A DNA stretch of 62,328 bases, filler included, from Chrysochromulina tobinii (taxonomy: Eukaryota): the NCBI GenBank assembly GCA_001275005.1. It is 5 parts of 5 records of this genome, joined end to end, with 100 filler letters (N's around TTAATTAATTAA, not from the genome) between each part and the next. Parts side by side here need not be neighbours in the genome. Positions count along the whole stretch, not along the records: positions 37,379 to 54,309 come from JWZX01001129.1; 4 more parts are not named here. One strand, written 5' to 3'. A program made the position numbers and the translations under genes. Position 1 is the stretch's first letter; every line of letters begins with the position of its first letter. Below the pieces are notes generated by a model that was not told the origin of the DNA, did no database searches, and saw only the letters and a program-made list of their open reading frames with translations. Below are positions 30,835 through 61,900 of this stretch, piece by piece.

Positions 30835-32589
30835 ATGGACACGGAGCAGCTCACGCAGCAGTTGGACCCCGTCTTCAAGGCGCAGTGGTTATTTCGGCAG
30901 CACAAGTGGGACGACTGCATCGCGCTGTGCACCGAGCTGCTCGCTGCCAACCCTTACGACCAGGCCGTGTGGTACCTCAAGTGTCGCGCGCTCACTCTGC
31001 AGGCGTGGGTCGACGACACCGACTTTGAGGAGGAGGGCATGGCGGATTCGCTGCTCGATGAAAATGCGACCGCCACGTTGCCGCGTCCGGGCACGTCGCT
31101 CTCACGGCCGATGACGGGCACAGCGATGGGGACGCCGGGCATGCGGCCGATCTCGTCGAGTGGCCGGCCGCTCTCGGGCTACGCGCGACCAGGCACGGGC
31201 TCGGCGCGGCCGGGGACGCAGGGTGGGATCGAGAGCGCGATGCAGGGCGCGCGGCCAGGCACGTCGCGGCCTGTGACGGCGCTCGGCCGGCTAGTCCGAC
31301 TCGGCACCGCGTCGATGGTCTCCGAGGCCGGCGGCCCGTTCATCCGCGTCGAGCGGCTCGACCTCAAAAAGTACGCGGCGCGGCCCGAGCTGGCCAAGGT
31401 GCTCTTTGATTACATCCTGTACCACGACCACAACCCGCGCAAGGCGCTCGAGCTCGCCAACTACGCGACCCAGCTTGCCAATTTTGAGGACTGGTGGTGG
31501 AAGGAGCGATTGGGCAAATGCTATTACATGCTCGGGTTGCTGCGAGAGGCGGAGAAGCAGTTCGCCTCGTCGATCCGGAACCAGCCGATGGTGGTCGCGT
31601 ATCTGCAGCTCGCCAAGGTTGCGCTACGGCTCGACCAACCCAAGAATGCGCTCGACGTGTACACGAAGGCGATCGAAGCCTTCCCGGGAGATCCGGCTTG
31701 CATGCTGGGCATCGCGCGCGTGCACGAGGCGCTCAACGAGGAGACGGAGGCCATCGCCATGCACAAGATGGTGCTCGAGGCGGACCCTGCGAACGTCGAG
31801 GCGATGGCATGCCTCGCCGCGCATCACTTCTACTCGGACCAGCCTGAGCTCGCCTTGAGATTCTACCGGCGTATGCTGCAGATGGGAGTCTCGACGCCCG
31901 AGCTGTGGAATAATCTCGGCCTGTGCTGCTTCTACGCATCCCAGTATGACATGGCGCTCTCGTGCCTCGATCGCGCGCTATCGATGGCCTCGGATGACGC
32001 GATGGCGGACGTGTGGTATAACATTGGGCAGGTGGGCCGCACGACGCCCGCACGACGCCAACCCCTCCGCCGCGTGCAGCGGCGCGCGCCATCGCCACGA
32101 TGCACGGCCCACGCCTCTGATGGTGCCGTGCGCCCTGGCTGCCTGGCTGCCTGCCCCTCGCTCGCGCCTCTTCCATGCCCTTCCTCGCGCGCACCTCTCT
32201 CGCGCCTTCACCTCTCGCCTCTCGCCTCTCGCCTCCCCCACCGCCATCCACGGCAGGTGGCCATCGGCATCGGCGACCTCGGGCTCGCATACCAAGCCTT
32301 TAAGATCTCAATCTCCGTCGACGCAAACCATGCCGAGTCGTACTCCAATCTGGGTGTGCTCGAGCTGCGCAAGGGCAACATCGACGCGGCGCGCTCCAAC
32401 TTCCGCGTGGTGCAGGGCATGGCCTCGCATCTATTCGAGCCGTTCTTCAACGGCGCGCTGCTCGCCTATAAGCTCGGAGACTTCCAGGAGGCCTTCGAGC
32501 TCGCCACCAAGGCGCTGCAGCTCTGCGAAGGCCACCACGATTCGCTCGAGCTGCTCAAGCAGCTCAAGACGCACTTCGCCATGCTGTGA
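30835..32589 (+). CDS. BBS8: BBSome TPR protein BBS8/TTC8, one intron 32032-32256
   Basis: NPYDQAVWYLKCRALT, RPGTSRPVTALGRLVRLGTASM, DWWWKERLGKCYY, ELWNNLGLCCFYASQYD; splicing joins WYNIGQ|VAIGIGDL. Confidence 0.97.
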   Translation: MDTEQLTQQLDPVFKAQWLFRQHKWDDCIALCTELLAANPYDQAVWYLKCRALTLQAWVDDTDFEEEGMADSLLDENATATLPRPGTSLSRPMTGTAMGTPGMRPISSSGRPLSGYARPGTGSARPGTQGGIESAMQGARPGTSRPVTALGRLVRLGTASMVSEAGGPFIRVERLDLKKYAARPELAKVLFDYILYHDHNPRKALELANYATQLANFEDWWWKERLGKCYYMLGLLREAEKQFASSIRNQPMVVAYLQLAKVALRLDQPKNALDVYTKAIEAFPGDPACMLGIARVHEALNEETEAIAMHKMVLEADPANVEAMACLAAHHFYSDQPELALRFYRRMLQMGVSTPELWNNLGLCCFYASQYDMALSCLDRALSMASDDAMADVWYNIGQVGRTTPARRQPLRRVQRRAPSPRCTAHASDGAVRPGCLAACPSLAPLPCPSSRAPLSRLHLSPLASRLPHRHPRQVAIGIGDLGLAYQAFKISISVDANHAESYSNLGVLELRKGNIDAARSNFRVVQGMASHLFEPFFNGALLAYKLGDFQEAFELATKALQLCEGHHDSLELLKQLKTHFAML

Positions 32590-32871
32590 GGTTCGGGCGT
32601 CCTCCCAAAAGAACCGCAGGCAAGCAGCAGACGTACGGTAGATCTAGATGCGTCGTCATCGTTTCCACAGTGGACACTGTCTCGGGACATGTAGATGTAC
32701 CGAAAAGGAAATCGAAACGCGAAAACGATTGGACCGAAACGAATACGCACTTCGCTTGGTCGAACACACCGCTTGGCCGAAGACACCGCTTGGCCGAACA
32801 CATCACGAACACACAACCTCTTAGCACGCCTATCGCTTGGCCGTAGCGCGCGAACGAGGAGCGACCCATCC

Positions 32872-35561: not shown

Positions 35562-36665
35562 ATGCACCTCACAGGCATGGCCTTGGACATTGTGCAAGAG
35601 TCGCCGTGGCAAAACGCGTGGCGTCCGCCAGATTGTCAATGTTTTGCTCTTTGCGAAACCGGCGAGTTGATGAAGCTCTTTTCGCATCTGCCGCTCCTGG
35701 TGTACAATGACTCCTCTCCTTGGTTTGGCTACCTGACCCGCGTGTATCGAACAGCGGTGCCACTTCCTTTCAACTTGCGCAACCTCACCATGTTTTACCC
35801 TGGACTGCTCCCGACGAATACACACCGGTGCGAGACTTATCCCTGGTCGAAACACGGCAACGCATCTCAACTGCCTCAATGTGCAGATCAGAACTGTAGC
35901 AGCTGGCTACGTCAAACGAGTGAGGCGAACGCCGATATGCGGTACCGGCCGGGATGGGCAGCTGGGTCCGCCCACATCTGGACGCCCATCCCCAACTTCT
36001 TCGATGAAACGAAACACGGGACGTCCGCAGATGAGATGGTCCGTTCCGGTGCAGAACGCTCGCGACTGAGACTCAGCGGACGCAACCTCTTCGCTGGCTT
36101 GCAATCAGTGCGCAACCGAACCTTCTATGCAAATGACTCGTGGGTGGAAGTGATGAGGGTCGAGTCAACTGTCACACCCGAAGGCAATTTCCATGGGTAC
36201 CCTTATGGCTGCTGGTTCTGGCCTATGCCAGGATCTGGCATCTTCATCAACATCGGTAAGTCGTTGCGGGCCCAAGGCACTGGGCACGCCGTTGATGTAC
36301 TCGGGATCCCGCGGCACGATTTGTATTTTGCGAACGCGACGCGCGCGGCTGGTTTTGACTCCCTCCAAGTGCTTATGGGCCAAACAAACTTGGGCGGGCA
36401 TAAGTCGCGCTTCCACGTGCAAACTGGACATACGTTTGAGATCATCATCGCCAACGGCGCTTGCATGACCGAGACTATCTATGGTGCATGCGCTCCCATG
36501 GAACTCAGAACTGGCTGGGATGCGTCGTTACCATGCAACTGCCAGCAACGATTCGCCAATCTTGAACTGCCGAGGATCCGACTCGCGTGCTACAAGTTAT
36601 CAAACGAGGTTATTGCTCAACACGGATCTAATTGTCACACCACATGCTCAACACGGACTTGCTAA
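35562..36665 (+). CDS. Cys/Trp-rich hypothetical protein (possibly secreted); start uncertain, 3' end overlaps the repeat array
   Basis: Globular-looking sequence WVEVMR..YGCWFWPMPGSGIFINIG..GFDSLQ..GACAPMELRTGWDASLPCNC, with several N-x-S/T sequons. Confidence 0.6.
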   Translation: MHLTGMALDIVQESPWQNAWRPPDCQCFALCETGELMKLFSHLPLLVYNDSSPWFGYLTRVYRTAVPLPFNLRNLTMFYPGLLPTNTHRCETYPWSKHGNASQLPQCADQNCSSWLRQTSEANADMRYRPGWAAGSAHIWTPIPNFFDETKHGTSADEMVRSGAERSRLRLSGRNLFAGLQSVRNRTFYANDSWVEVMRVESTVTPEGNFHGYPYGCWFWPMPGSGIFINIGKSLRAQGTGHAVDVLGIPRHDLYFANATRAAGFDSLQVLMGQTNLGGHKSRFHVQTGHTFEIIIANGACMTETIYGACAPMELRTGWDASLPCNCQQRFANLELPRIRLACYKLSNEVIAQHGSNCHTTCSTRTC

Positions 36666-37077
36666 GTCCGTGTTGAGCTAAGTCCGTGTTGAGCATATTC
36701 ACAGCTCACTAAGTCCGTGTTGAGCATATGGTTTTTTTTCTCAACACGGACTTAGCAAGTGTGACTATCAATTCACAGTTGCTAAGTCCGTGTAAAGTCC
36801 GTGTTGAGCATATGTTTTTCGGTGCTCAACACGGACTTGTTGGTGTGATTGACGATCAAGTCCGTGTTGAGCATATGTTTTTCGGTGCTCAACACGGACT
36901 TGATGGTGTGAAGTCCGTGTTGAGCATATGTTTTTCTGTTGCTCAACACGGACTTTGTAAGTGTGAATCACACCCAAAACGAAAAACATTTGCTCAACAC
37001 GGACTTGTCAAGTCCGTGTTGAGCATGTTCACAGTTTACACACCGGGTTCTTTTGTGAATGAGCTCAACACGGACTT
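36615..37077. repeat. Array of ~16 copies of the 15-mer GCTCAACACGGACTT in mixed orientation, forming repeated hairpins
   Basis: About eight forward and eight reverse copies (some partial); three ~44-bp hairpin units AAGTCCGTGTTGAGCA-TATGTTTTTC..-TGCTCAACACGGACTT start at ~36795, 36858 and 36911. Confidence 0.95.
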
Positions 37078-37278: not shown

Positions 37279-37378
37279 NNNNNNNNNNNNNNNNNNNNNN
37301 NNNNNNNNNNNNNNNNNNNNNNTTAATTAATTAANNNNNNNNNNNNNNNNNNNNNNNNNNNNNNNNNNNNNNNNNNNN
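37279..37378. other. Assembly linker
   Basis: Same 100-bp N/TTAATTAATTAA/N block. Confidence 0.98.
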
Positions 37379-40300
37379 CGGCCTCGTCCTGCGCCGACTG
37401 GCGCTGCGCCGCGCGCTCGGCCGCCGCCTCGGCCGCCGCCTCGGCCGCCGCCGCGCGCTCGGCCGCCGCTTCGGCCGCCGCCTCGGCCGCTACCGCCGCC
37501 TCGCAAACGCGACGCCCCTGCGCGAGGATGCGCTGAGCGGCAGCGGCGTTCGGTGAGGCCGCGGCGTCAAAGTCCAAATTAGGCAACGCGGCTTCAAAGT
37601 CCAAATTAGGCAACGCGTCGGCGGAGCGCTCCGGGGCGGGGATGGCAGAGATCAACTCGGCGCGCGCCCTTGCCGCCTCCGCCCGCGCCGCCGCCGCCTC
37701 CGCCCGCGCTGCCTTCGTCTCCGCTCGGGCTGCCTCTAATTCCGCTAATTCCACACCATCAACGGCCTTTGCCCGGCTCGCTTCTTCCCGCGCAGCCTGC
37801 AATTCAGCGTGCGCGGACTGCCATTGCAAGACCAATTCCGAGTGCGCGGATTGCAATCCCGAGTGCGCAGATTGCAATTCCGAGTAGGCAGACTTCTCCC
37901 GTTGCTCGGCGTCGACGGTGGCCCTTTCGAGCTCGGACCTCGCCACCTGCCTAATTTGGGTCACCGTCTCGAGATCGGACCTCGCCGCCTTCAGATCCGC
38001 CCTGGCGTCCTCCAACGCACCCCTGGCCACCTCAGCTTCCGCCCTGGCCGCCCTCGCCTCTGCCTGTGCCGCATGCATGGCAGCCCGGGACTCATCCACT
38101 GCTGCCTGGGCCACGCCCCTGGCCTGCGCCACCGCCGCCTCCGCCTCCGCCCTCGCCGCCTCCGCCTCCGCCCGCATCGCCTCCGCCTCCGCCCTCGCCG
38201 CCTCCGCCTCAGCTCGCGCTGTCTCAAGTATCTCAATCGCCGCTTGCCTATTTAGGAGCGCCGTCTCGAGCGCCGCCCTTCGTTCCTCGAGGGCGCGCAG
38301 CTGCACCTGATGAGGGAGACAATCAGAGGTCATCCGCCTTCCTCGAGGGCGCGCAGCTGCATCAGCTCATCGCTCGCAAAGGAGCCATCAGCGCCAATCA
38401 GCGCCAATCAGCGCCAATCAGCGCCAATCAGCGCCAATCAGCGCCAATCAGTGCCAATCAGCGCCAATCAGCGCCAATCAGTGCCAATCAGCGGCCCTCA
38501 TCAGCCCTCATCAGCCCTCATCAGCCCTCATCAGCCCTCATCAGCGCACCTCCTCCTCGCTCTGCCGCCGTTCCAAACAGGCTCGCTCCGCCGTGGCCGC
38601 CTCCAACGCCCTCTGCGTGCTCTCCAAACCAATGCGAAGCTCCGCGGACTGCTGCCGCTGCTCCGTTAATTGCTCCGTTAATTGCTCCGTCAATTGCCGC
38701 TGCTCCGTTAATTGCTCCGCGGATTGCTTGCGCTCCCGTCCCAACTCGGACCGGGCCTCGTCTAATTGTGAATGCAATTGGCCTAGTTGCGACTGGGCCA
38801 CGCCTAATTGCGAGTGCAATTGGTCGAGCTCCGCGTGCAGCTCAACACAACGCGCATCGGACAGCTTGAGACCGGTAAGGAGGTTCCGACACTCGACCTC
38901 CAACAATGCCATCGCCTCCTTTTGGGTTGCTTCTGATGAGGACAGCAATTGGAGGCCATCAGAGGCACTCAGAGGCCATCAGAGGCCATCAGAGGCCATC
39001 GGAGGCAATCAGAGGCACTCGGAGGCACTCGGAGGCCATCAGAGGCACTCGGAGGCGCTCGGAGGCCATCAGAGGCTATTGGCGGCCATCATGGGCAATC
39101 AGAGGCCATCAGCAGTTACCCGTCACGGCCGCCGCCATGCGCAGCTCGTTCTTTTCGGCCTCCGCCTCTTCCAAAGCCGCCTCCGCCGCCGCCACCGCCG
39201 CCTCCGCCTCCGCCCTCGCCGCCGCCACCGCCGCCTCCGCCTCCGCCATCGCCGCCTCTGCTGCATCTCGAGCTGCGAGCATGGCGCGTTCCGCCCCCGC
39301 CTGCGCCGCCGCCACCGCCTCATCCGCCTCTGCCTGCGCCTCCTCCACCATCGCCTCCGCCTCCGCCCTCGCCGCCTCGGTCGCCTCTCGCACTGAGGCG
39401 ACGACCGACTCGGCCTCCGCCCGCGCCGCGCCGACCTGCGCGTCCGTCTCCGCCATCATGGTCTCGATGGCGGCCTCCGCCTCCGCCTGAACCCTCGCCA
39501 CCGCCGCGTGCAGCGCCTCGTGCAGCTCAACACAGCGCGCTTCGGCGGCCTGGAGGCTCGAGTACCTGCCCAAGCAATCATTGGCGCAATCAGCGACGCA
39601 ATCAAGGACGCAATCAGGCGGCCTGGAGGCTCGAGTACCTGCCCAAGCAATCATTGGCGCAATCAGCGGCGCTCCGCCGCGGCAATCCGCTCAGCACAGC
39701 GCGCGTCAGAAGCCAATCTGAGGGTTCGATTCACACGCGCCGTGTCGAGCACTCACAGCTTTTGACACTCGAGCTCCGACGATGCCATCAGACGCAATCA
39801 GATGCAATCAGACGCAATCAGCGCCGTGTCGAGCACTCACAGTTTTCGACACTCGAGCTCCGACGATGCCATCGCATCTTGCTGCGAGGTTCGAATCTCG
39901 ATCGCCTCTCTCCGGACAGATTCCATCTCCGCCTGCGCAGATTCGATCTCCGCCTGCGCAGATTCCCTCTCTGCCCTCGCCTCCTCCACCGCCGCCTCCG
40001 CCGCCGCCCTCGCCGCCACCGCCGCCTCCGCCTCCGCCCTCGCCGCCGCCACCGCCGCCTCCGCCTCCGCCCTCGCCGCCGCCACCGCCGCCTCCGCCTC
40101 CGCCCTCGCCGCCTCCACCGCCGCCTCCGCCTCCGCCACCGCCGTCTCGTGTTCACAGAGAGCCAATCGCATGGCGGTCACGGCCGCCTGCGCCGCCCGC
40201 GACAGCGCCTGCGCCTGCGCTGCCTCCTGCTGCGCGTACGCTGCCTCCTGCTGCGCGTGCGTCGCCTCCTGCTGCGCCTGCTGCACCTGCATCTCTGCCG

Positions 40301-43300
40301 CCGCGAGCGCCGCCTCTGCCTCTTCGCGCGCCGTGCTGAGCGCCGCCTCCGCCTCGCGCCGCGTCGTCTCGAGCTCTGCCCTGTACCTGATGAGCGAGGC
40401 CATCCGAGTTGGAATCAGAGTGGCAATCAGAATCGCAATCAGAGTCGCAATCAGAGACGCAATCAGAGTCGCAATCAGCCGCAATCAGCCGCAATCAGCT
40501 CATTACTTGAGGGAGAGAGTCTCTCGCAGCTCGCGCTCGGCCATGAGCGACGCCGTACCCGACTCTCCGACGGCAAGCTCGAGGGCCGCCTGCGCCGCGG
40601 CCTCGCGCTCCGCGATCTCGTGCGCGAGGTGCGATCTCCACTCGAGCTCCGACTGCTGCCGCTGCTCCGTCAATTGCTCCGTTAATTGCTCCGTTAATTG
40701 CTGCCGCTGCTCCGTCAATTGGTGCTCGAGCCGCGAGATCGTCATCTGGAGCTCGAGCCGCGAGCTCGTCATCTCGTCGAGATCTCGCGCCGCGCGCTGC
40801 TCGCGCTCGCTCGCCCCATGACGCTCGCGCTCGAGCGCCGTCCTGAGCGCCACCGCCTCGGCGCGCGCCGTCCCGAGCGCCGCCGCGGCCTCGGTACGCG
40901 CCGTCTCGAGCGCCGCCTCGGCCTCGCGCGCCGCCGCCTCGGCGCGCGCCGTACCGAGCGCCGCCGCGGCCTCGGCTTCGTCACACTCGCGCCGCCAGCT
41001 CATCGCGAGCTCGCGCGAGTGACGAACCTTGTGTTCACACTGCGCCTCGAGGCCCCCGATCTCGGCCGCGAGCAGCGAGCTCGCGATCTGCGCCGCGGAG
41101 CTCACGGCGCCCAACTCGGCGCGCGCATCCTCGAGCTCCGCCTGCCTATGTTGGAGCGCCGTCTCGAGCGCCGCCTCCTCGAGCGCCGCCTCGGCCGCGG
41201 CGGCGGCGAGCTGCTCGGTCATCGAGCGCCGCGCCTCCTCCGCCTGCCGCAAGCGACGTCCATCAGTGGCAATCAGTGGCAATCAGTGGCAATCATCATC
41301 GAGCGCCGCGCCTCCTCCGCCTGCCGCAATCAGTGACAATCAGTGGCAATCAGTGGCAATCATCAGTGGTCATCAGGGACGCCATCTGGGGTCATCAGTG
41401 GCGCCATCAGAGGTCATCAGTGGCTCATGTCACAAGGCACGACTGCACGCTTCACATTCACACCCGCTTCACATTCACGCTTCACGTTCACACCTGCTTC
41501 AGCTGGCGCGCGCTCTGTCGCTCGGCCGCCTGCATCGCCTCCGAATGCTCGATCAACGCCTGCGCGACTGCTTCGCGCGCTTGAGCTCGCACGAGCTCCA
41601 CCTGTGGAAACGTGCAAGGGCGCCGTGGTGAGCACATGCACGCCGCTTAAACCAACGGGGCGCCGTGGCGAGCACTTGCAGCGCGCCGCTCCTCGGGCCT
41701 CGGAGGGAGGGGAGGGGAGGGGAGGGGCAAAAAGGGGGGCGTGCGCGGGAGCGCCGTCGCGAGCGCCACCTCGTCCGCGGCTCGTGACGAAACCCGCGCC
41801 GTCGCGAGCGCCGCCTCGTCCGCAGCCTGCCGTTGCGCCTGCGCGACGGCCTGGCGCGCGTGCTCGTGGGCGCTCGCGACGGCGCTCGCGAGCCTCGCCG
41901 CGTCGCGCGCCTGCGCCGCCCTCGCGCCCACGTGTGACGAAACCAGCGCCGTCTCGAGCGCGCACGCCTCGCGCGAGAGCGCGCGCAGATCGGATCTCAG
42001 CCTCGCGAGATCGTCCACGCGCTTCGACACCTCGGCCGCCGCCTCCGCCGCGGCGCCCTGGGCAGCCTGCGCTCGCGACAGCGCTGCGTTGGCAGAGGCG
42101 GTCGCGGCGGCGGCATCGGCGCTCGCTGTGGCCGCTGCAGCTCTGGCCGCCGTCGCCTCTGCCGTCGCGGCGACCCTTGCCGCCGCCTCTGCCGTCGCCT
42201 CCGCCTTCGCCTTTGCCGCCGCCTCCACCGCCGCCGCCGCCGCCTCTTCCGCCGCCGCCGCCGCCTGCCTCGCCGCCGCCGCCTCGGCAATCGACCGAGA
42301 CGCGAGTGCCTCGGCCGCCTCGCGCCGCGCCGTCTCGAGCGCGCGCTGCTCGAGCGCCGTCTCGAGCTCCGCCGCGTCCGACAGGCGCTCGGCACGGCGC
42401 GCGCTCGCCTCGGCCGCGTGCCGTTCGCGCTGAGAGGCGATCTCCGCGCGCTGAGATGCAATCTCGCGCTCGAGGCTCGCGATCCGCCTCTCGCCCGCCA
42501 CGACGCTCGCGCTCAACGCGACGCGCTCAGCTTCGGCACGACCGACGACGCCGGCGGTGCTCGCCGCGGCGGCCGCCTGCACGCGCGCCGGGGTGAGCAC
42601 CAAGCCGTCAGTTGACACTCGGATGGTCATCCGTGGTTATCAGTGGTCATCAGAGGTCATCAGTGGTCATCAGAGGTCATCAGTTGACACTCGGATGGTC
42701 ATCAGGTGGGGCCATCAGATGGTCCTCACAGGTAGGGCAATCAGATGCTCGTCATGTCGCAATCACCTGCATGGCCTTCGTGTGCTCCTCGAGCGCCGTG
42801 TTGAGCGACTCCGCCTCGCTGAGTTGCTGCGAGAGCGAGCGCACGTGCGCCATCTCGGCGCCCAGCCGCTCCTCGAGCGCCGTGTTGAGCGACTCGGCGT
42901 GCGCCATCTCGGCGCCCAGCCGCTCCTCGAGCGCCGTGTTGAGCGACTCGGCGTGCGCCATCTCGGCGCGCAGCCGCTCCTCGACTGAGCGCACGTGCCC
43001 CTCCAAGATCTCGCGCTGAGATTGCAGCTCGCGCTCGAGATTCTCGCGCTGAGATTGCAGCTCGCGCTCGAGATTCTCGAGCTCGGCAGCATGCCTCTCC
43101 TCGGCAGCTCCGAGAAGCTTCTGCTGCTCCGAGATTGCAGCTCGGAGAAGCTTTTGCTGCTCCGCCTCGGCGGCCGCCACGTCCGCCTGCCGCGTCGGGT
43201 GGCAGTCGGAAGTCATCAGTAGTCATTACGGGTAATCATGAGTCATCATGAGTCATCAGGGGTCATCAGGAGTCATCAGAGGTCATCAAGAGTCATCAGA

Positions 43301-46300
43301 GCTCATCAGTCGTCATCACCTGGCGGAGGATCTCGGCCTCTCGGGAGTCATCAGAGGTCATCAAGAGTCATCAGAGGTCATCAGTCGTCATCACCTGGCG
43401 GAGGATCTCGGCCTCTCGGGAGTCATCAGAGGTCATCAAGAGTCATCAGAGCTCATCAGTCGTCATCACCTGGCGGAGGATCTCGGCCTCTCGAAGCAGT
43501 TGGGAACGCTGCATCTCAGCCGCCGCGCGCTCATCGCTCAGCCGTTGGTGATCAGCACGGCGCTCGTCGCCCAGCTGCTGCAGCCGCTCCTCGAGGGCCA
43601 TCACCTGTGTCATCAGGCGTCATCAGGCGTCATCAGGCATCATCAGGCGTCATCAGCCGCTCCTCGAGGGCCATCACCTGTGTCATCAGGCGTCATCAGG
43701 CGAGCACTCAGGCGAGCACTCAGGCGGGCACTCAGACGCGCCCAATCAGAGGGTATGATCATTGAGAGCACTCAGGGTTTGTCAATTGGGCGCCCACTCA
43801 CCATCGACTGCTCAGTCTCGAGCTGCTCGAGCAGCGCATCTCCCCGCGCGCGCGCCGTGCTGAGCGCCTCGGCCGCGCTGGCCGCCGCCTCGTCCGCCGC
43901 GCGCTGCACGTGGGCGAGCCGCTCGGCTGCCTGGGCGGCCGCTGCCTCGTGTGCCTCCCTCTCTGCGCGCACCTGCAATGAGAGACGCAATCAGGCGCAA
44001 TCAGGCGCAATCAAGCGCAATCAGAGACGCAATCAGACGTCCTCAGTGTCCAATCCCTCAGAGTTGGTTATTGGAGACCATCGGAGCGATCAGGGCTCAT
44101 CATCATCGTTCATCATCCTCATCAGGGTTCATCATCCTCATCAGTGCTCATCCTCCTCATCAGTGCTCATCATCCTCATCAGGGCTCATCAGCCTCATCA
44201 GGGCTCATCATCCTCATCACGTACCAGGCGTTAAGCTGCCTCCTCGCTCGCAATCAGAGACGCAATCAGAGACGCAATCAGAGACGCAATCAGAGACGCA
44301 ATCACGTACCAGGCGTGAAGCTGCCTCCTCGCTCGCTTCCAATTGGCGCTCAGCCGCGTGCCTCTCCACCTGTGGGGAAGTGGATGGGCGCCGTGGTGAG
44401 CACTGGGGCGCTCAGCCGCGTGCCTCTCCGCAATCAAACGCAATCAGAGGGGCGATCAGACGCAATCAGATGCAATCAAAGGGGTTCGTCACCTGCAGTC
44501 GATGCTCGGCAGACACCTGATGGCCATGCAGCTCGACCTCCGCCGCGCGCAGCCGGCGCTGCAACGCCGCATTCTCCTCGCGCGCATCGTGCAGTTGCTC
44601 CGTGACGATCTGGGCGCGATCTCGATCCGCCGCGCCTTGCCCACGCAGCCTGGCAATCTCCTCCTCCGCCGACGCGCGCGCATCGTCACGTTCATGCCGC
44701 TGCCATCCGAGGAGTCATCAGACGTCATCAGAGGTCATCAGAGGTCATCAGTGGTAATCAGAGGTCATCAGAGGTCATCAGAGGTCATAAGTGGTCATCA
44801 GTGACGCCATCAGCGAGGCAATCAGACGCCATCTGCGAGGTTCGTCACCTGCTGCCCGAGGAGCTTGCTCAGACGCAATCACACGCCAATCAGAAGCAAT
44901 CAGACGCCATCAGTGGGGTTCGTCACCTGCTGCCCGAGGAGCTTGCTCAGACGCAATCACACACCAATCAGGCGCAATCAGACGCAATCAGCGAGGTTCG
45001 TCACCTGCTGCCCGAGGAGCTTGCTAAGACGCGCCTCGGCACGCGCCTCAGTCTCCGCCGCCGCCGCCTGTGTCAGGCTGAGCTTCTCCTGCAATTGACG
45101 AACCTGCTCGAGGAGTGCCTTCTGATGAGGGACGCAATCAGAGGCGCCATCAGAGGCGCCATCAGAGGCCATCGGCGGCCATTGACGAACCTGCGCCTGG
45201 CAGTGCTCGAGCTCGAGCTTGAGATCACAATCAGAGGCAATCAGAGGCCATTGACGAACCTGCGCCTGGCAGTGCTCGAGCTCGAGCTTGAGATCACAAT
45301 CAGAGGCAATCAGAGGCCATTGACGAACCTGCGCCTGGCAGTGCTCGAGCTCGAGCTTGAGATCACAATCAGAGGCAATCAGAGGCCATTGACGAACCTG
45401 CGCCTGGCTGTGCTCGAGCTCGAGCTTGAGATCGCGCAGCTCGCTCTGCGCCTGGGCGCTCTGCGCTTGCATCTCGTGCTGATGAGATTGCATCTCGCGC
45501 TGATGAGATTGGACCTCGAGCAGCCGCGCCTGCGCCATCGGGGCAGATGCACTCTCAGATGCACTCTCAGATGCACTCTCAGATGTAATCAGATGCACTC
45601 AGATGCACTCTCAGATGCAATCAGATGCACTCTCAGCCGCAATCAGCCGCAATCAGCTGCACTCAGATGCACTCAGGCGCGCTCAGGCGCACTCAGGCGC
45701 ACTCAGCCGCAACCGCACCTGCGCCTCGGCCGCCTGCTTCTGCACCGCGCTCAACTCGGCGCGTCGCTGCTGCGCCTCCACCTGCGCGTCCGCACGCGCC
45801 GAGTTGAGCGCGGCCGTCGCGCTCAGCGCCTGCCGGCGCGCCGCCTCGAGCGCGGCCTCGAGCTCGCGCCGCGCCGTGTTGAGCGCCTCCTCGTGCTCGC
45901 GTTTCGCGCCTTCGAGCTGACGCGCCGTGTTGAGCATCGCCTCCCTCGACGCCTCCGCCGCCTCCGCCGCGGCCGCCTCGAGCGTGCGTGTCGCACGACG
46001 GTGCTCGGCGTCGCGCTGGGTGAGGGCGAGGGAGGCGGCCGAGGCGGCCTGGTGCGCGGCCGTCGCGCGCGCCTCGGACGCCTCCAGCTCCGCCCGAAAC
46101 GCCGTCTCGAGCGCTCGCCTTTCCGAGGCGACAGCTGCCTCGGCGGAAGTCAGCCGCGCGCGCAGCCGCACGAGCTCCTCGCGCTGTGCGAGATCGAGCT
46201 CGTCCGCGGCGCGCAGCTGCGCCTCGTAGTGGTACTCGGCTTGCTGGCCGCTCGCCTGCCCGATCGCGGCCAGCTCCTCGAGATCCGCAATCTCCGGGTT

Positions 46301-46618
46301 GAGCACGCCGAGACGCTCAAGCGTGCCGCGCTCCGCGTACTCGGCGAGCGCGCTGAGCTGCAAGCGCAGCCGCTCCGCCTCGGCAGCGGCGTTCTCGGCG
46401 CGCCGCCGGTAAATGTTGGCGTGCGCGACCGCCGCGCTCACGTCGTCGTCGGCGTGGATGAGCTCCAGGGTCAGCAGCGACTGGCGCGCGCGTGAGCGGC
46501 ACTGCGCCGCCTCGGCCGCCTCGGCAAGCTGCATCGAGAGCGACTGCTCATCCTCGAGCCGCGCCGCGAGGTGCTGCTCCGCGTACGTTGTGTAGCTGGT
46601 CGGCGTCTGCATGTACAT
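37379..46618 (-). CDS. Very long Ala/Glu/Arg-rich coiled-coil protein with >12 introns, 3' end in the gap
   Basis: Successive minus-strand coiled-coil exons (AEAEAAVAAAR, EQLTEQ repeats) separated by GT-AG introns, e.g. 39119-38933 and 38549-38307. Confidence 0.8.
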
Positions 46619-46865
46619 GACCGCCTCAGCCGTACGGCCGACTCAGCCGACGACCGCCGGGGGGAAGTGGCCGGAGATGATCGATTGAAGGAGAGCACTG
46701 TTTGCGGAATGTGTGTGTGAATGTGAATGTGTCGTGTGAACGTTAACACGACAGACGCGACAACCGGTGCTACGGCACTGTTGTGTCTGTGTGACTTCTA
46801 TAACACGGGATTGCTCAGCGCAACGCGAGACTTAACAACTCCTCAGAGACATCTTCCCGGCCTGC

Positions 46866-48411
46866 TCACCTCCGGAGCACCCTCGCCACATTCGCCGGCC
46901 CACTCACAAAAGGGTGCACGCGCGAGCCGTCGCCCGCGATCATGTGCGCCAGAGCCTTGCCAACGCCTGAGCACTGCGGCATGCCATGCCCGCAAAAGCC
47001 CGCGCCCACCCAGACGCGCTCGCGCACCGCGCCCACGAGCGGCCTCTTGTCGTGCGTGAACCCGAGCACGCCCGTCCACTCCGCCTCGATTTGAATCTCG
47101 CCCAAGCGCGGGAAGCTCGCGCGCAGAAAGCGGCGCAGGTAGGCGCCCACGACGGCGCTCAGCGTGCGGTCGTCCGTGCTGCCAACGGCCGCGCCCGGCT
47201 CGAGAGCGCGCGCACCGCCGAGGCAGAGCCGATTGTCGGGACGCCTGATGAGGAGGCCCATCAGCCGCAATCATTTCGCAATCATTTCGCAATCATGTCG
47301 CAATCAAGTCGCACTCAGCGGTACTCCGCGGCATTCAGTCGCACTCAAGCGCACTCAAGCGCACCGAGTCGCAATCAAGCGCAATCTAGCGCACTCAGTC
47401 GCACTCAGTCGCAATCAGTCGCACTCAGTCGCACCGGATCATGTACAGCTCGCGAGCACCCCGCTCTGAATCAATCGACATTCCCCCCACTGGCCACACG
47501 GCGGCCGCGGGCACAGGCGCCGTCATGAGCACCTGGTTGCGCACCGGGTACAAGTGCTCGCGCAGCTCGGGCAATATCTCGGCGGCCCAGCCGTTCGTAC
47601 ATACCACGACGGCGCGCGCCGTCACGGCGCCTCGGTCCGTAACCACCACCGCAAGAGGCGCGTCGTCGTGGTCGGCCACCGCCGCCGCGTTAGCCGCCGT
47701 GCCCGCCGCCGCCGCCGCCGCCGCGACGGCGCCGCCCGCGACATCGGCAGCGTCGCCGACGCGCAGCACGCGCACGGGGGCGAACAGCGCGGCGCCCGAG
47801 GCCCGCAGCAGCGCCGCCGCCACCTTCGCAGGGTACATTTGCTTGGCGCCCGCGTAGACGGTGGCTGCCGAGAAGGCAGGCGACTGGAGATTCTCTTCGC
47901 ACTGCGCGGCGTCCCACGCGGGTGTGTCACCCCAGTCCTCCTCCTCCTTGGCGAGCTCCGGGTCGCGGTCGGTGTCGTGGTACTCGACGTCCACCTCGGG
48001 CGCGCGGCGATCGAGAGCGGCGGCCCCGCCCGAAGTCAGATCGCATTCGATGCCCTCCGCTTCGATGAAGGCCACAAGGTCCGCCACCGTGTCGCACTCG
48101 AACTCGGAGCTCGGGTTGGCCCATAGATGGCCGCCGTTGCGACCCGTCGCGCCGCCGCACAGGCAGCGTGCGTCGAGGACGATGCTGCTCCTGCCGTAGA
48201 GCTTCTGGAGCCAATACGCGGTGGCACATCCCGTCATGCCCGCGCCCACGATGAGCACGTCGGCAGTCGTGGGCAGCGCGGTCGACGCCGGTGGCGCGAG
48301 GTCCGGGGGCAAGTGTTGCAGCCACCACGAGCTCGTCGCGTCGGCGGTGATGGCCGAGGTGGGCGTGGCAACGGGGTCAAGCATGCCGGCGCGTTCACAC
48401 TTCAACTTCAT
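46866..48411 (-). CDS. FAD-dependent oxidoreductase (DAO/PuuB-like), intron 47434-47245
   Basis: DVLIVGAGMTG, GATGRNGG, VVVCTNGW; exon 2 has WTGVLGFTHDKRPLVG and GFCGHGM. Confidence 0.92.
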
Positions 48412-48701
48412 TCATTCACAGCCAATGATTAGAATTCGACACCCAAGACACCGGACCATTCACACCACACCACAACGTGACACGTCACACAAACCGCTTC
48501 ATTCCAAAGCTCGCGATGTGAAACGCATTCACGACACACCAACGCGCTCACTACACACCATTAATTTCTGTCAAGTGCACACACGGCTGAGCCAGACGTA
48601 ACGAGGACCGAGGATGGCATGCTCACACAGTCAACGGTGCCCCCTCTTGGTTCAGCGACACACGGTCACGCAGGTGTCCGAGCTCGACTGGCATGCCCAG
48701 G

Positions 48702-50467
48702 TCATGCCTCATAGCTATCGTCGCCGTGATTGCCCGGGGAAACGTACGCTCTGTCGATCCCAAGATACTTATCGACCAGTCCCAAGATCGTGTTCATGGA
48801 ATCGGGCACCGTGAGCACCGTGCCAGGATGCGGGATGGAGTTGATCTTGCAGAGGTGCTCCTGCACACGATACACCATCACCTCCGAGTCCTCATCCGTA
48901 TCTTTAGCCCACTGATCTTTGTAACCGGGTAATTTGTCCTCAAATCGGATTGGAAGCACCGGAATACCCTTCCTGATGGCCGCGTTGATCTCCTTCAAAC
49001 ACGGCTTGGACTCGAATAATGCCGCAGTCAGTACGACAACGAGCACCTTGGCTGGTGCACGTCGCGAGTTCAGGCGCAGCATGAAGACTTCCCAATCGGT
49101 ACCCGGTGGAACGTGCAGCCCGCTGAAGCATCGCACGCCGCGCTCATGGAGGAGCCCGAGAATGCCCGCCGCATAATACATGCCCGGCCCGGCGCCGTCG
49201 CAGTCCCTCCCGGAACGGCGACCCGACGCGTACGAGATCACCACCTCGGGATAGAAGTCCTGGAACTGCACGCCCTCTGGCATGAATTTCGAGAGCACTC
49301 GGCTCTTCACGGTCTGCGTCATCTGCTCGGTGATCACGCCTGGCACTGCGAAGTATTCCTGGGCATTCCAGCTGTTCGGCAGTTGCGAGCGTGAAGCGCG
49401 CCGCTCTGGCGGCGCCGACCCCGCGGCCGGTGCATCAGACCGCAATCCCCACTGATAAAGCAATTGGAAAAGGCCCGCCTTCAGACCTTCCAGCTGGGCG
49501 GCCGGCTCGAAAGCCGACTCTGCAGCGGCCTTCTCGGCGGCGGCCTTCTCGGCACGCACGGCGTCCAACTCGCGACGAAGCGCCGCCGCCTCCTCCGCCG
49601 CCGACTTCAGAAGACGGAGGTCAGCCGCCGTCCTCTCCGCGGCGGCCTTCTCCGCAGCGGCCTTCTCAGCTGCGGCCTTCTCTGCGGCCGCCTTCTCATC
49701 AGATGCCCTCTTGGCCGCTACCGCCTTCTCAGCCGCCGCCTTCTCCGCAGCGGCCTTCTCAGCTGCGGCCTTCTCAGCTGAGGCCTTCTGCGCGGCCGCC
49801 CTCTCCGCGGCGGCCTTCTCAGCTGCGGCCGCCTTCTCGTCGGCTGCCCTCTTGGCCGCCGCCGCCTTCTCGGCCGCCGCCCTCTCGGCCGCCGCCCTCT
49901 CAGCCGCCGCCCTCTCGGCCGCCGCCCTCTCGGCCGCCGCCCTCTCGGCCGCCGCCCTCTCGGCCGCCGCCCTCTCGGCCACCGCCTTCTCCGCCGCGGC
50001 CTTCTCCGCCGCGGCCTTCTCAGCGGCGGCCTTCTCAGCGGTTGAAAGCGGCGGCGTCCAAGCGGTGCACTTGAGCTGCGGCTGCACAACCCAAGCAGAG
50101 CCCGTCCACGCCTTCCATGTCTTCGCGCTCACGTCGGGCGAAGCAGCAGCTGAGTCTTCGAGGTCTAGAAAGCCCTTGGTCTCACCAAGTAGCGACTGAG
50201 GCTGCCCCTTCCACCCAGCTCCAGCGAACGCAATCCAGAGAGTCGCATCGCTCGTGTGCTGATACGCGGGCCGGTCGTTGACAAGCTTGCTGCGGTCGAG
50301 AAGGTAGGTGCCGATGTATTTGGCCGGTTCGCCAGTCAGCGAGCCGCCCTCGAGCTTGAGTCCTGGCGGCGGCAGCTTTTCACCCCCGCCGAAGAGGGAC
50401 CTGGGCGGACCTCATGCTCAGCATTGGGTTCAACCCGGAGGACTTTCGGAGGCGACGGAACTTACAT
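48702..50467 (-). CDS. N-terminal beta domain + (AAAEK/R)n helical linker + TIR domain protein (~566 aa); ATG split by intron 50465-50401
   Basis: [11 protein letters not shown]...[30 protein letters not shown]. The frame is open upstream of the tracked ORF to 50400, and AT|GTAAGT...CCCAG|G reconstitutes ATG. Confidence 0.8.
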
Positions 50468-50569
50468 CAGCGTCGAAGTTCTGAAACCGACATGAAGAAA
50501 ATAGCTCACGCCCCGCCCCAGGCGTGTCCAGCTAAAAGGTCAGCCACGAATCGTCGTGTCTTCCCCGCG

Positions 50570-51421
50570 ATGTCCGTCGTGGCGACACTCGACGATGCGT
50601 CGTGGGCGGCCTTCCTCGAATACAAGAGGCAAGTAACCTCGCCACCGACGGATGCACCGCTGCGCTTCAAGGTCGGAGACGCTGTGCGCGCGCACGTGGG
50701 CCCGAACGAGTGGGCGGCGGCGTCAGTGGTCGGCCTGTGGTGGAGGCTGCCGGCGTGGCCGCCCAGCTTCTTCGCACCCTACCAGCTTCGGCTGGAGACG
50801 GATGGCTCGCTCATATTTGCAGCGGTTGACGCCGACACCTTCGTCATTGGCGCGAGCGGTCCGCCGCCAGAGGAGAGCGCCCTCGACCACGACCCCCAGA
50901 TGACTCTCGGCTGGCCAGCGGACGTCGCAACCAGGCTCGAGTGGGAGCAAAGTGGCTACACGCCCTTGCACGTTTGTTGCATGCCGCCGGCGGGGAATGA
51001 GATCATCGCCATGGAGAGCTGCCTGCGCAGCCTCCTGCGCAGGCCACTCCAGCACCCGGATCACAACCGGAATCGTGGCGCGGAGACGCCGCTACACACG
51101 GCCATCCGATACAGCCGGCTCGAATGCGTCAAGCTGCTGCTCGCCGCCGGCGCCAACCCACGTGCGCTCAACGGCCAGATGCAGACGGCGCTGCAGATGG
51201 CCGAGTTTTCGATGGAGGCCACGGAGGCGACGTTCCCGTGGTGTGGGCCGCAGGACAAGCTCTACATTTTGCTCTTGGCAAAGCGTGTCGCCGCCGAGCT
51301 GGGCGAGGAGGATGACGATGAGGAGGAGGAATGGGTGGATGTCGAGGAAGGCGAGGCCTCCAGCTCGAGGCCCGTCAAGACCATCCGAAAGGGCAGGCTC
51401 AACAAGCGAATGGCGAGCTGA
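50570..51421 (+). CDS. SH3-like barrel (LRFKVGDAV...APYQ) + ankyrin repeat protein
   Basis: LRFKVGDAVRAHVGPNEW...APYQLRLETDGSLIFA; ankyrin GYTPLHVCC and ETPLHTAIRYSRLECVKLLLAAGANP; acidic tail. Confidence 0.8.
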   Translation: MSVVATLDDASWAAFLEYKRQVTSPPTDAPLRFKVGDAVRAHVGPNEWAAASVVGLWWRLPAWPPSFFAPYQLRLETDGSLIFAAVDADTFVIGASGPPPEESALDHDPQMTLGWPADVATRLEWEQSGYTPLHVCCMPPAGNEIIAMESCLRSLLRRPLQHPDHNRNRGAETPLHTAIRYSRLECVKLLLAAGANPRALNGQMQTALQMAEFSMEATEATFPWCGPQDKLYILLLAKRVAAELGEEDDDEEEEWVDVEEGEASSSRPVKTIRKGRLNKRMAS

Positions 51422-52079
51422 AGAGAGCATCGCCTATGCGCTCGCCATGGCGCTCGACGTCGACCGGTCGGTATAGCCTTTACGGTCGCGGGGCCGCCCT
51501 ACCGGCTAGAGCGCAGGCGTCGGTGATCTCTGTACTCTGATGTCTTCACTGTATGAGATTTTATGAGATAACACGTTTTACGTGTACAACCATCAACCTG
51601 TACGCAAAACAATGTAACAGTTCAAATTAGTTCAAAACAATGCGAACAGTTCGAATCCATGTGCGAATCGTTCCACGTTCGAAACTCACCCCCGGAATGC
51701 ACCGCGCCCGGCGGGAGCCCGGGACCCCATGCCCATCCGACACCTCGCCTGAGAGAGAAGAGACCGCGCGCGCCTCGAGCCTCGTCCTCCCAGTGCCCTC
51801 GAGGCGTCACGGACTCGGCCCTGCCACAAGGCGCCAGCTCTCTATAGTCCCTAATCGAGTTAATCGAGCTCCGCACGCAGATTCGAGACTCTGGTCTCCG
51901 AGATCGAGCGAGGTCAAAGCCATTCGAGTTTCGTCAGAGCCACTCGGGCGTCCAGCCGTTGCAGGCCGCAGTGCCACACGCGCATGTCGTCCGGCCGCGC
52001 TGTGAGCAACGGCAGATGTCCGAGATACCGCCCGAGATACCGCCCGAGATACTAACCCGAGATAATGCCCGAGATACGC

Positions 52080-53213: not shown

Positions 53214-53404
53214 TTCAAACAAAGGGCCTTTCTGGGACAACTTTGCCACAGAGGCCGCGCTGGGCGCGGGGTGCCGCGCCGCGCCCAGGGAAGCTGGAAC
53301 GTTTCTTTCGCTGCAAGCGCAAAAAGGAACTTGCCATGTTTGGATCAGTTCGATTGATAATTTCGTCGCACTCGGCTCCCTCGGTCTCTCCCCTCGCGGA
53401 ACCC

Positions 53405-54271: not shown

Positions 54272-54273
<2 letters not shown>

Positions 54274-54308
<35 letters not shown>
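54274..54308. repeat. (GA)n microsatellite at contig end
   Basis: About 17 GA units. Confidence 0.95.
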
Positions 54309-58900: not shown

Positions 58901-61900
58901 GCAACGGCGCGTCCATCTCAAACAACACCGCCGTCTCCGTGAACAGGTACGCGGTGGGGGGCGGCGGGCTGGCGATCGATGAGGGCGGCAAGGCCGTGCT
59001 CTCGGCGAGCGCCGTCGTCGGCAACACCGCGCGCGCCGAGGGACGCGGCGACGCCAACGGCGGCGGCGTGCTCACCTACGGCACCCTCACCGCGAGCGAC
59101 GGAGCGTCCATCTCAAACAACACCGCCGTCTCCGTGAACGGTAGGGCATATGGCGGCGGGCTGGAGATCAGCTTGGGCGGCACGGCCGTGCTCACGGCGA
59201 GCGCCGTCGACGGCAACACCGCGCGCGCCGAGGGCAGCGGCAACGCCTACGGCGGCGGCGTGTACACTGACGGCGCCCTCACCGCGAGCGACGGAGCGTC
59301 CATCTCGAGCAACACCGCCGTCTCCGTGAACGGGCAGGTGCAGGGCGGCGGGCTGCAGATCAGCACCAGCGGCACGGTCGTGCTCTTGGCGAGCGCGGTG
59401 GACGGCAACACCGCGCGGGCCGAGGGCAGCAGCACCGCCTACGGTGGCGGCGTGGTCACCGGCGGCACCCTCACCGCGAGCAACGGCGCGTCCATCGCGC
59501 ACAACACCGCCGTATCCGTGAAGGGGCAGGCGGTCGGCGGCGGGCTGGAGATCGGCAAGGGCGGCATAGTCGTGCTCTTGGCGAGCGCGGTGGACGGCAA
59601 CACCGCGCACGCCGAGGGTAACGGCAACGCCCTCGGCGGCGGTGTGGACACCTTCGGTGCCCTCACCGCGAGCGACGGCACGTTCATCTCGCACAACACC
59701 GCCGTCTCCGTGAACGGGCCCGCGTATGGCGGCGGGCTGGAGATCGGCAAGGGCGGCACGGTCGTGCTCTCGGCGAGCGCCGTCGACGGCAATACCGCGC
59801 GTTCAGAGGGCAGCGGCGACGCCTACGGCGGCGGCGTGGATACCGACTACGGCGCCCTCACCGCGCGCGACGGCACGTCTATTTCGCACAACACCGCGGT
59901 CTCCGTGAACGGGCAGGTGGAGGGCGGCGGGCTGCTGATTGGTGAGGGCGGCACGGCCGTGCTCTCGGCGAGCGCCGTCGACGGCAACACCGCGCGCGCC
60001 GAGGGACGCGGCATCGCCGGCGGCGGCGGCGTGCGCACCGACGGCGCCCTCACCGCGAGCGACGGTACGTCCATCTCGCACAACTCCGCCGTCTCCGTGA
60101 ACGGGGGAGCGATCGGTGGTGGGCTGGAGATCGGCGAGGGCGGCACGGCCGTGCTCTCGGCGAGCGCCGTCGACGGCAACACCGCGCGCGCCGAGGGCAG
60201 CGGCAACGCCCTCGGCGGCGGAGTGGTCACCAAAGGCGCCCTCACCGCGAGCGACGGCGCGTCCATCTCAAACAACACCGCCGTCTCCGTGAACGGGGGA
60301 GCGATCGGCGGCGGGCTGCAGATCAACGAGCGCGGCACGGCCGTGCTCTCGGCGAGCGCTGTCGACGGCAACACCGCGCGTGCCGAGGGTAACGGCAGCG
60401 CCTTCGGCGGCGGCGTGGACACCTTCGGCGCCCTCACCGCAAGCGACGGCACGTCCATCTCGAGCAACACCGCCGTCTCCGTGGATGGGGGCGCGCTCGG
60501 CGGCGGGCTGCAGATCCACTCCGGCGGCACGGCCGTGCTCTCGGCGAGCGCCGTCGACGGCAACACCGCGCGCGTTGAGGGCAGCGACGTCGCTGCCGTC
60601 GGCGGCGGCGTGGTCACCAAAGGCACCCTCACCGCGCGCGACGGCACGTCCATCTCGCACAACACCGCCGTCTCCCTCCAGGGTGAAGTGATCGGCGGCG
60701 GCGTCACTGCCGCTAACATTGACGACATATTCGCCTGCGCGGTCGCGCTGAACGATACCTCCGTCCTCAACAACACGGCGCGCGCCGAGCGCGGCGCGGG
60801 CGCCGACGGCGGCGGCCTCGCGACCTTTTGCAACCTGACGGCGCGCAACGCGACGATCGTCGGCAACCGAGTGTTCGCCGCCAGCGGCACCTGCCGCGGC
60901 GGTGGCCTCTTCCACGCCGGCCGCCCCGCCCTCCTCTACGGCGGCGTCATCGACGGCAACGTGGCCATCGGCCGCGTTGCGTCGGGCTCCCAGGTCCTCG
61001 ATTGGCTCTGATGACCACTGATTGGCTCTGATGACCACTGATTGGCTCTGATGACCACTGATTGGCTCTGATGACCACTGATTGGCTCTGATGACCACTG
61101 ATTGGCCGCGTTGCGTCGGGCTCGCAGGTCCTCGTCGGCGCGCCGCTCGCCTACGTGCTGCCCGCGCCCCTCGGCCGTTGGTTCGACGGCGTGCGCCAGT
61201 GCAACCGCGCCTTGTGCCCGGCAGGCATCCAAGGTGGCGAGGTGGAGTGCGCGCTGCAGCCGTGCGACTTTCACGTCTTCGGCGACGAGGTCGAGGGCCG
61301 GTGGATCACCGTCGCGCTACCGGGGCCCGCCGACGGCGATGCCTACCCGCCGCGATGCCTCCCGGGCTCATATGCCGCGGGCGCCGACCCCGAGGCCGAC
61401 CAGAGCGGCCGCACCTGCTCCGGCCTCTGCCCCGCCGGCCGCGCGTGCTTCATGCCGGGCACGATCGCACCCGGCGGCGATGCGAGCGCCCTGCCTGCAG
61501 CCCCCGCCGGCATGGCCACGGCGCTCGGCGACGCCACAGGCCGGCCGTGCGAGGCGGGCTTCTACTCCAAGGGCGGCGCCGCCGACCGTTGCCAAAAGTG
61601 CCCCTTCAACTCCACTTCGGCATTAGGCGGCTCCTCGATCGACGCCTGCTTCTGCGAGCCCGGCTTCTTCGGCGCGGCCGGGGCCTGCCGCCCCTGCCCG
61701 CCCGGCCTGGACTGCGCAGCTGGGGCGGACCCTGTGAATGTGAATGTGCTACCAGGCTCGTGGCGGCCGAGCCGACGCGCGGCAGAGGCGCACGTGTGCC
61801 CGGGTGGCAGCCTCACGTGCGCCGGTGGCTTGTCTGCGGCCAACTTCTCCCTCGACGACCCCAGCACGTGCGCCCCTGGCTTGGCGGGGCCATACTGCTC

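Follow-up and report, generated by a model that had tools for sequence, protein, structure and literature searches.

Duplications around a shared filler at intron junctions of Chrysochromulina tobinii, and their possible part in intron birth and growth

For most introns gained recently the source is not known, and surveys now give the credit to transposons. Non-LTR elements insert with long duplications of varying size and with 5' ends that vary; polymerase theta or synthesis-dependent MMEJ leaves microhomology at both junctions and templated inserts, copied in some events from local templates. To our knowledge, polymerase-theta templated insertion is not a routine source of introns. In Daphnia pulex, intron gain by repair of staggered double-strand breaks is described in the accessible part of the source, with repeats of 4-12 bp in 33 cases among 90 new introns (PMC4202315). 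Non-LTR elements make up about 5% of classified introners, and the published screen, which covered 8,716 genomes, gives 0 introner families for C. tobinii in its supplement file 7 (available parts of PMC12130899).

C. tobinii is an alga kept in culture and is probably haploid (available text of PMC4580454). The window, that is the whole stretch of DNA analysed, comprised 62,328 nt of assembly GCA_001275005.1, and its positions 37,379-54,309 (JWZX01001129.1) contain the host gene. The gene model with outermost splice sites had 2032 codons and 0 stops. Judged by composition, the product would be Ala/Glu/Arg-rich and coiled-coil-like, and a Pfam scan of three of its exons gave 0 families above the cut-off. 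Junction copies of 20-75 bp had been noted in the introns of this gene between 38283 and 45430. All listed echoes were present, with coordinates confirmed by sequence comparison (Table 1); the copies are real, but their exon portion is 19-36 nt only and the longer figures count filler too. An exact match of at least 15 nt to the adjoining 40 exon bases was found in 9 of 14 introns (9 of 13 inside 38283..45430), against 0 of 182 mismatched intron-exon pairs of the same gene, and at this length there were 0/14 matches to exon bases 41-80 and likewise 0/14 for inverted copies. In intron 4 the first copy looks as if it had been split after GTG by later filler.

Table 1. Host gene, echo-bearing introns and the duplication outside the original range (positions in the window)
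Feature	Positions	Strand	Repeated parts	Basis
Host gene, coiled-coil-like	37379..46618	(-)	15 exons, 14 GT-AG introns; contig end reached at 37379	
Intron 2, donor-side array	45122..45397	(-)	exon end with its donor in 4 copies at period 69 (45190-45397); one change common to 3 inner copies	gene model, sequence comparison
Intron 3, donor-side array	44700..45004	(-)	3 copies, period 78 (44848/44926/45004)	gene model, RNA joint
Intron 4, echo of next exon's start	44370..44492	(-)	23-nt copy, 44345-44367 = 44407-44429, period 62, then 37-nt acceptor-bearing insert	RNA joints, DNA contigs
Intron 5, donor-side echo	43973..44309	(-)	36 nt, 1 mismatch, 44216-44251 = 44301-44336, period 85; 49-nt filler insert	gene model
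Intron 6, acceptor-side echo	43605..43801	(-)	49 nt incl. acceptor, 43581-43629 = 43654-43702, period 73	gene model
Intron 7, donor-side array	43187..43469	(-)	3 copies, period 75 (43319/43394/43469); plain tandem duplication without insert	gene model, RNA joint
Intron 8, intronic duplication	42577..42766	(-)	24 nt, 42608-42631 = 42680-42703, + 48-nt filler; all intronic, without exon sequence	sequence comparison
Intron 10, acceptor-side echo	41244..41493	(-)	34 nt, 41219-41252 = 41296-41329, period 77; 43-nt filler insert	gene model
Intron 12, donor-side and acceptor-side echoes	39566..39840	(-)	donor: 53 nt, 2 mismatches, 39737-39789 = 39821-39873, period 84; acceptor: 52 nt, 39544-39595 = 39617-39668, period 73	gene model
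Intron 14, echo of next exon's start	38307..38549	(-)	23-nt copy, 0 mismatches, 38283-38305 = 38339-38361, period 56, then 32-nt acceptor-bearing insert	gene model
Duplication holding CAG|GT	60970..61134	(+)	31 nt around 103 nt filler	outside noted range

Contigs of 469 nt from two DNA runs (X1, X4), of possibly the same strain, covered 44275-44743 with 0 differing letters; the 44345/44407 pair stands unchanged in these DNA data, so here it is no artefact of assembly. Among the contigs listed none spans the 69-, 75- or 78-nt arrays, whose copy numbers are those of the assembly. RNA contig joints showed use of the outermost splice sites in three introns: intron 3 (44699>45005, 305 nt, run X13) and intron 7 (43185>43469, 283 nt, run X13), both with the outermost donor copy, and intron 4 (44366>44490, 123 nt, runs X13, X15, X16 and X17). 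For intron 2 one RNA piece ends at 45388, which is not in itself proof of donor choice. In the first RNA comparison filler from other loci was dominant, and 15 of 79 joints were listed. Of the donor-side periods, 69, 75, 78 and 84 can be divided by three and 85 cannot; alternative in-frame donors were ruled out for the 75- and 78-nt units by in-frame stops within them, whereas the 69-nt unit has no such stop.

The survey covered 141 related loci, with exons inferred from motifs, not RNA. None of them covers the coiled-coil gene, so comparison between orthologues concerns other genes. Copies of the next exon's first 40 nt lay upstream, by an exact match of at least 15 nt, at 78 of 204 acceptors, against 3/204 for exon nt 41-80, 0 for inverted copies and a mean of 4.6 for shuffled sequence. 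The footprint was present in 82 of 185 sampled acceptors (about 44%), a sample drawn by acceptor motif and so biased toward type A (below). Of 71 echo cases, 47 had their first copy directly after plain sequence, starting GT (36) or GC (5). The common unit was about 55 nt of CTGAT filler flanked on both sides by a duplicated stretch of about 25 nt; the duplicated exon part in these loci was variable (13-60 nt, median 23). Introns are related to one another by degenerate filler, with a median longest shared string of 9 nt, and the 20-nt acceptor motif is estimated to occur in about 3100 DNA stretches. Two scans of viral contigs gave 3 loci without filler, which were dropped, and 0 loci. Period medians were 80.5-83 across all three classes; such a narrow period is no obvious prediction of break repair and counts against it.

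These classes are three geometries that form introns when GT and AG come from duplicate and filler. In type A the duplicate begins GT/GC and the insert finishes in the acceptor CCCTCATCAG; in type B the duplicate finishes in AG and the donor arises at the start of the insert; in type C AG|GT lies inside the duplicate. Among 53 strict events with plain flanks, in which the unit is the whole intron, 41 allowed clean GT/GC-AG removal (A 23, B 9, C 9) and 12 did not. With GT-AG alone, 37 clean removals compared with 4 on the opposite strand. The clean removals are split over the three types, therefore the insert ends are not fixed; 18 of the 41 are of types B or C, without the acceptor end. The original idea of a process focused on splice junctions found no support in that form, since the same unit lies wholly inside intron 8 and between the plain flanks of the 53 strict events.

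As for the creation of introns, one locus (L042) has a 79-nt intron where its orthologue (L071) has an unbroken frame. This intron, whose splicing is predicted from the reading frame, is composed of a 51-nt insert plus a duplicate of 28 nt, or of 30 nt if the shared AG is counted. In the sequence examined, filler is absent next to the empty site. It is the one clear cross-locus empty site among 445 events tested, and could be a precise intron loss in L071 instead of a gain in L042. On reading, a second cross-locus candidate (L065/L134) had no presence/absence difference. Within the window, the predicted intron 60994-61127 would use the donor in copy 1 and the acceptor in copy 2 of the 31-nt duplication; its removal opens a frame, and the unspliced frames have 6-7 stops. 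Both cases agree with the claim that the process creates introns.

Filler-compatible bases at the junctions averaged 2.65 on the right (n=52 of 85) and 2.48 on the left (n=50 of 85), and 3.28 at the left junction of type A (n=18 of 35). Permutation nulls were 1.4-2.1, none reaching the observed value, and simulation gave 1.5-1.6 (P printed as 0.0000). This excess agrees with the templated synthesis that had been proposed, and therefore template-switch repair is favoured over a cut-and-paste introner. Inserts adjoining older filler had 15-22% of 10-mers in common with it, against 2-3% when shuffled, which fits the proposed enlargement of introns from local filler; later homogenisation could also give this sharing. 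Across 113 acceptors in 43 loci, assumed to be one strain, neighbouring introns had no excess likeness overall relative to introns of other contigs (P 0.14-0.94), so the template of a new intron is usually not local. Filler polarity was 798 sense against 9 antisense units, and 27 against 0 for inserts beside filler. Such near-strict sense polarity is expected of an RNA template and counts against repair; DNA repair must invoke selection against AG-rich antisense filler to account for it.

We lean toward the view that each echo is host sequence of about 15-50 nt, directly duplicated around a short CTGAT-rich filler and left when microhomology-guided template switching repairs a staggered DNA break. 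Filling in a break, or a pair of nicks, with an offset of about 25 nt would duplicate the stretch; the free end would use 2-5 nt of microhomology to prime on filler within an existing intron and copy about 50 nt, and the copied end would rejoin by a second microhomology. Selection would then retain only spliceable products, namely types A, B and C. An event inside an exon would give a new intron, and one beside an existing splice site a longer intron with an echo, and it is likely that duplication plus filler, probably through error-prone DNA repair, is a source of new introns as well as of growth in old ones. The 60-90 nt unit may then be multiplied into arrays of 3-4 copies when its two copies slip or exchange unequally. 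The clustering at junctions probably reflects survival of events, not targeting. Echoes would lie at junctions where the duplicate forms the junction, or where an event survives only if splicing removes its extra copy.

The main rival, which we regard as unlikely, is target-primed reverse transcription: at a nick, filler of an intron or pre-mRNA would be copied by a reverse transcriptase working in trans, a retroposing introner without fixed ends. It would explain the strict polarity, and the duplications found here, long and of varying size, together with the varying 5' ends, resemble non-LTR insertions. Type A inserts stop exactly at the last base of the intron, with two acceptor families (introns 4 and 14), and non-LTR elements are already among classified introners (accessible parts of PMC12130899). 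Types B and C, however, are without a fixed 3' end, so a fixed 3' end or tail is not found on all inserts; no poly(A) tail was seen on inserts, both junctions carry microhomology, and frames of at least 150 aa in the 141 loci and the window gave 0 RT-like motifs, a weak point with one simple motif and a small portion of the genome. Improbable, in our judgement, is that an unstable intron minisatellite gave rise to the echoes by ordinary slippage or unequal exchange, with duplications retained only where they did no harm and unconnected to intron birth. The insert-free 75-nt array, the change shared by the inner 69-nt copies and the similarity of inserts to adjacent filler agree with it, but it explains neither the 47 introns that open with a duplicate right after plain sequence nor L042/L071 with its filler-free empty site, and it fits the later amplification step only.

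A further candidate is a MITE-like introner of the cut-and-paste kind, with a transposase that reads its short terminal hairpin. One filler unit has the acceptor CCCTCATCAG as its reverse complement, intron 14 has one 10-nt inverted match, and introners occur in marine Chrysochromulina genomes, one family with a 4-bp duplication (available text of PMC9860276). But the duplicated exon part is long and variable, against 3-9 bp in the accessible text of PMC9860276, insert ends and lengths vary, and the folding of four insert ends did not go beyond shuffles (z -1.71 to 0.06). Neither a short fixed duplication of 3-9 bp nor conserved termini or inverted repeats on all copies, which mark DNA-transposon introners, were found. 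This explanation is very improbable and by duplication lengths largely refuted. Mis-assembly of low-complexity introns is more improbable still. The assemblies are from short reads and the longer arrays are unspanned among the contigs listed, yet the DNA contigs agree across one echo pair, RNA joints excise exactly the predicted lengths and the pattern recurs in separately assembled loci; copies diverge by point changes of 1.4-2.4%, as the original prediction had argued from mismatches.

In C. tobinii roughly four of ten sampled introns still carry an intact footprint of intron birth, which takes three geometries, and at least one site differs between close relatives, so repair and retroposition can be tested directly against each other in this alga. 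If the likely reading is true, it offers testable intron birth without a conventional transposon, and it suggests that screens based on end-to-end intron similarity undercount ongoing gain. A wider proposal, on balance doubtful, is a transposon-less, self-propagating intron system, in which intron templates, possibly RNA, would be patched into staggered breaks of ~25 nt by host repair or a borrowed reverse transcriptase. Each new intron would be a further template, and thousands would have been so formed and missed by introner screens.

Compared with known systems, the likeness to polymerase-theta/MMEJ insertions lies in microhomology at both junctions, in templated inserts and, for some events, in local templates. 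The literature on haptophytes, covered mainly through open-access papers, gave no description of the pattern, and a prior description may exist. The process had been put forward as possibly undescribed, which is right in part: staggered-break and tandem-duplication gains are published, though either their repeats are 4-12 bp long or they have no filler that propagates. As in Daphnia pulex (accessible part of PMC4202315), the new intron is an insertion between direct repeats of the adjoining exon, which stand at the intron ends, and later staggered events bring internal repeats and lengthen young introns. Unlike there, where most inserts are without known source, one recognisable filler is common across loci, and the duplicate is about 25 nt with its footprint at nearly half of the sampled acceptors. 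Type C, as at 60970-61134, would resemble tandem genomic duplication of an AGGT exon segment (available text of PMC3443670) in having both splice sites from the copies, but here filler separates the copies, and in types A and B one site is drawn from the insert side. Published introners have duplications of 3-9 bp and recognisable ends (accessible parts of PMC9860276), whereas the duplications here are long and variable with no fixed ends. Presence/absence between close relatives, at one site where splicing is predicted from the frame, accords with introners in the broad sense. Numerous related introns per genome are shared with the Symbiodinium/Polarella introners, and as in these one splice site is carried and the other comes from the duplicate (available parts of bioRxiv 10.1101/2020.10.14.339549; PMC9860276).

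Echoes, that is, copies of the adjoining exon end or splice site within an intron, are real and systematic in the coiled-coil-like gene. All echoes listed in the original prediction were found in the sequence together with three additional ones, and 9 of the 14 introns carried an exact copy of at least 15 nt from the 40 adjoining exon bases (cross pairs, 0/182). DNA contigs of two runs, which may be the same strain, matched 44275-44743 with zero differences, and the longer arrays were spanned by no contig listed.

Read from 46618, with the outermost copy taken at each repeated splice site, the gene model gave 2032 stop-free codons after removal of 14 GT-AG introns. Three introns were exactly matched by RNA contigs, and one of these joints was also present in a separate RNA alignment. 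RNA also told which donor copy is used, because the outermost donor was spliced in both confirmed introns having three donor copies. Placement of the remaining 11 introns came from motifs and reading frame; the intron 9 donor is the least certain. Phase 0 was seen in 11 of the 14 introns. The 69-nt donor unit of intron 2 is open in the frame of the gene, so an inner donor, if used, would add 23 residues per copy. A single change was common to the three inner 69-nt copies, and arrays of 3-4 copies probably arose by later slippage or unequal exchange. Because the window consists of five contigs with artificial linkers, adjacency across the linkers is not genomic. If the pieces have one origin, the 100% identity of a protein encoded on a neighbouring piece (30835-32031) identifies the source as the haptophyte C. 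tobinii or a strain very close to it.

Features of the window discussed in the text
Feature	Position	Description
Linkers between contigs	18256-18355, 24693-24792, 37279-37378, 54310-54409	N44-TTAATTAATTAA-N44
Piece with host gene	37379-54309
Host gene	37379-46618	minus strand
RNA-matched intron	43185>43469	283 nt; three donor copies
RNA-matched intron	44366>44490	123 nt; joint also in 3/4 runs of separate RNA alignment
RNA-matched intron	44699>45005	305 nt; three donor copies
Intron 2	45122-45397	69-nt donor unit
Further filler introns, other genes	19000-19600, 23400-23505, 47246-47434
Predicted newborn intron, type C, unrelated gene	60970-61134	filler insertion within 31-nt duplication holding CAG|GT
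Second acceptor family (GTGCTCACCACGGCGCCC...CAG)	41602-41680, 44370-44406	one copy within long duplication, as in main family; one itself doubled, 43 nt apart
TPR ciliary protein gene (TTC8/BBS8-like by source names), neighbouring piece	30835-32590	filler absent from introns; product (30835-32031) 100% identical to named C. tobinii protein
Intergenic array, possibly a foldback element	36647-37077	single 14-mer, 7 forward and 7 reverse copies
Coding repeat rich in Gly/Ala/Asn	57000-58400	period 192 nt

One metagenome scan with a 20-nt acceptor motif as query gave 141 distinct loci (789 kb, from an estimated 3100 stretches), which we assumed to be Chrysochromulina-like on the basis of the filler, a CTGAT-rich intron repeat, in common. 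One of them (L021:14000-16050) has a long array of period 126 nt, coding in appearance. After duplicate removal, 78 of 204 terminal acceptors had an exact upstream copy of at least 15 nt of exon nt 1-40, against a mean of 4.6 in shuffled pairs and 3 each for exon nt 41-80 and 81-120. Three later exon windows gave 7-10 upstream copies (shuffled means 3.8-5.7), and inverted copies of nt 1-40 were 0 among the 204. When 19 acceptors with residual filler were excluded, the echo was present in 71 of 185; in 47 of these 71, plain sequence directly precedes the first copy, starting with GT (36) or GC (5). Median lengths were 23 nt (13-60) for the copied exon portion and 55 nt for the insert. With divergence tolerated, 82/185 acceptors had a match anchored on GT/GC in which 15 or more of 22 bases agreed (shuffles, 3.3).

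Searching without the motif for direct repeats around filler, we identified 187 clean events. Of the 89 events in the loose, plain-flanked set, 52 could be spliced out cleanly on the strand of the filler, and 22 on the opposite one. The strict set (n=53; duplicate at least 18 nt, clear strand) had 41 events cleanly removed as GT/GC-AG and 12 without clean removal; with GT-AG alone there were 37 against 4 on the opposite strand. In type A (23 strict events, towards which sampling was biased), the duplicate supplied the donor and the insert the acceptor; in type B (9) the duplicate supplied the acceptor, and in type C (9) it supplied both sites.

Two loci, L042 and L071, share about 97% identity. 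L042 has a 79-nt insertion, composed of a perfect 28-nt duplicate with GT at its start plus 51 nt of filler with the acceptor at its end, where L071 has an unbroken frame (region with weak PPR similarity, under the Pfam cut-off). The perfect repeat suggests recent gain in L042, the alternative being precise loss in L071. It was the only presence/absence site among 445 events, and few loci had orthologues.

The process had been described as focused on splice junctions, and this part was not supported as worded: the duplication and filler unit was also found wholly within intron 8 and as entire new introns. Mid-exon events either create a junction themselves or disappear, while those adjoining a junction persist only with the extra copy spliced out, so junction clustering is explicable without targeting; targeting itself is possible.

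We lean towards microhomology-guided templated repair, which would insert filler, with selection then retaining spliceable products. Filler-compatible bases exceeded expectation at both junctions, scored for events with the insert end in the filler library (52/85, 50/85 and 18/35). At the left junction of type A, some 25 nt away from the donor, the excess is unlikely to reflect splice selection. For inserts adjoining older filler, resemblance to it was about 7-8 times the shuffled level. Neighbouring introns were no more similar to each other in the overall test. Unusual 38-60 nt 3' ends were common to nearby intron pairs in three loci (L141, minus strand, 320/522; L048, 7745/10613; L057, 2592/5288; counted on the acceptor strand), which suggests occasional local copying, though the overall test was non-significant. 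The period was near 80 nt in all classes. The main rival, RNA-templated insertion by reverse transcriptase, fits the sense polarity of the filler (798 sense against 9 antisense) and the type A inserts, which finish at the last base of an intron; we consider it rather unlikely. Both were weighed by the general hallmarks of templated-repair and reverse-transcriptase pathways.

Our literature search, largely without subscription papers, found no account of this duplication and filler pattern in haptophytes, and an earlier account is possible. Staggered-break repeats in Daphnia neointrons measure 4-12 bp (PMC4202315). The reviewed mechanisms of intron gain include tandem duplication of segments with AGGT (PMC3443670), and introners take splice sites from 3-9 bp duplications (PMC9860276; PMC11282704; dinoflagellate preprint bioRxiv 10.1101/2020.10.14.339549). 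Chrysochromulina tobinii was in the genome list of the 2022 introner survey (PMC9860276), whose entries place introners in marine Chrysochromulina MAGs; a 2025 table (PMC12130899) gives C. tobinii 0 introner families. Rather than being a MITE-type introner, the C. tobinii pattern resembles intron gain by break repair in how it works, and is an unusual long-duplication variant of it with propagating filler.
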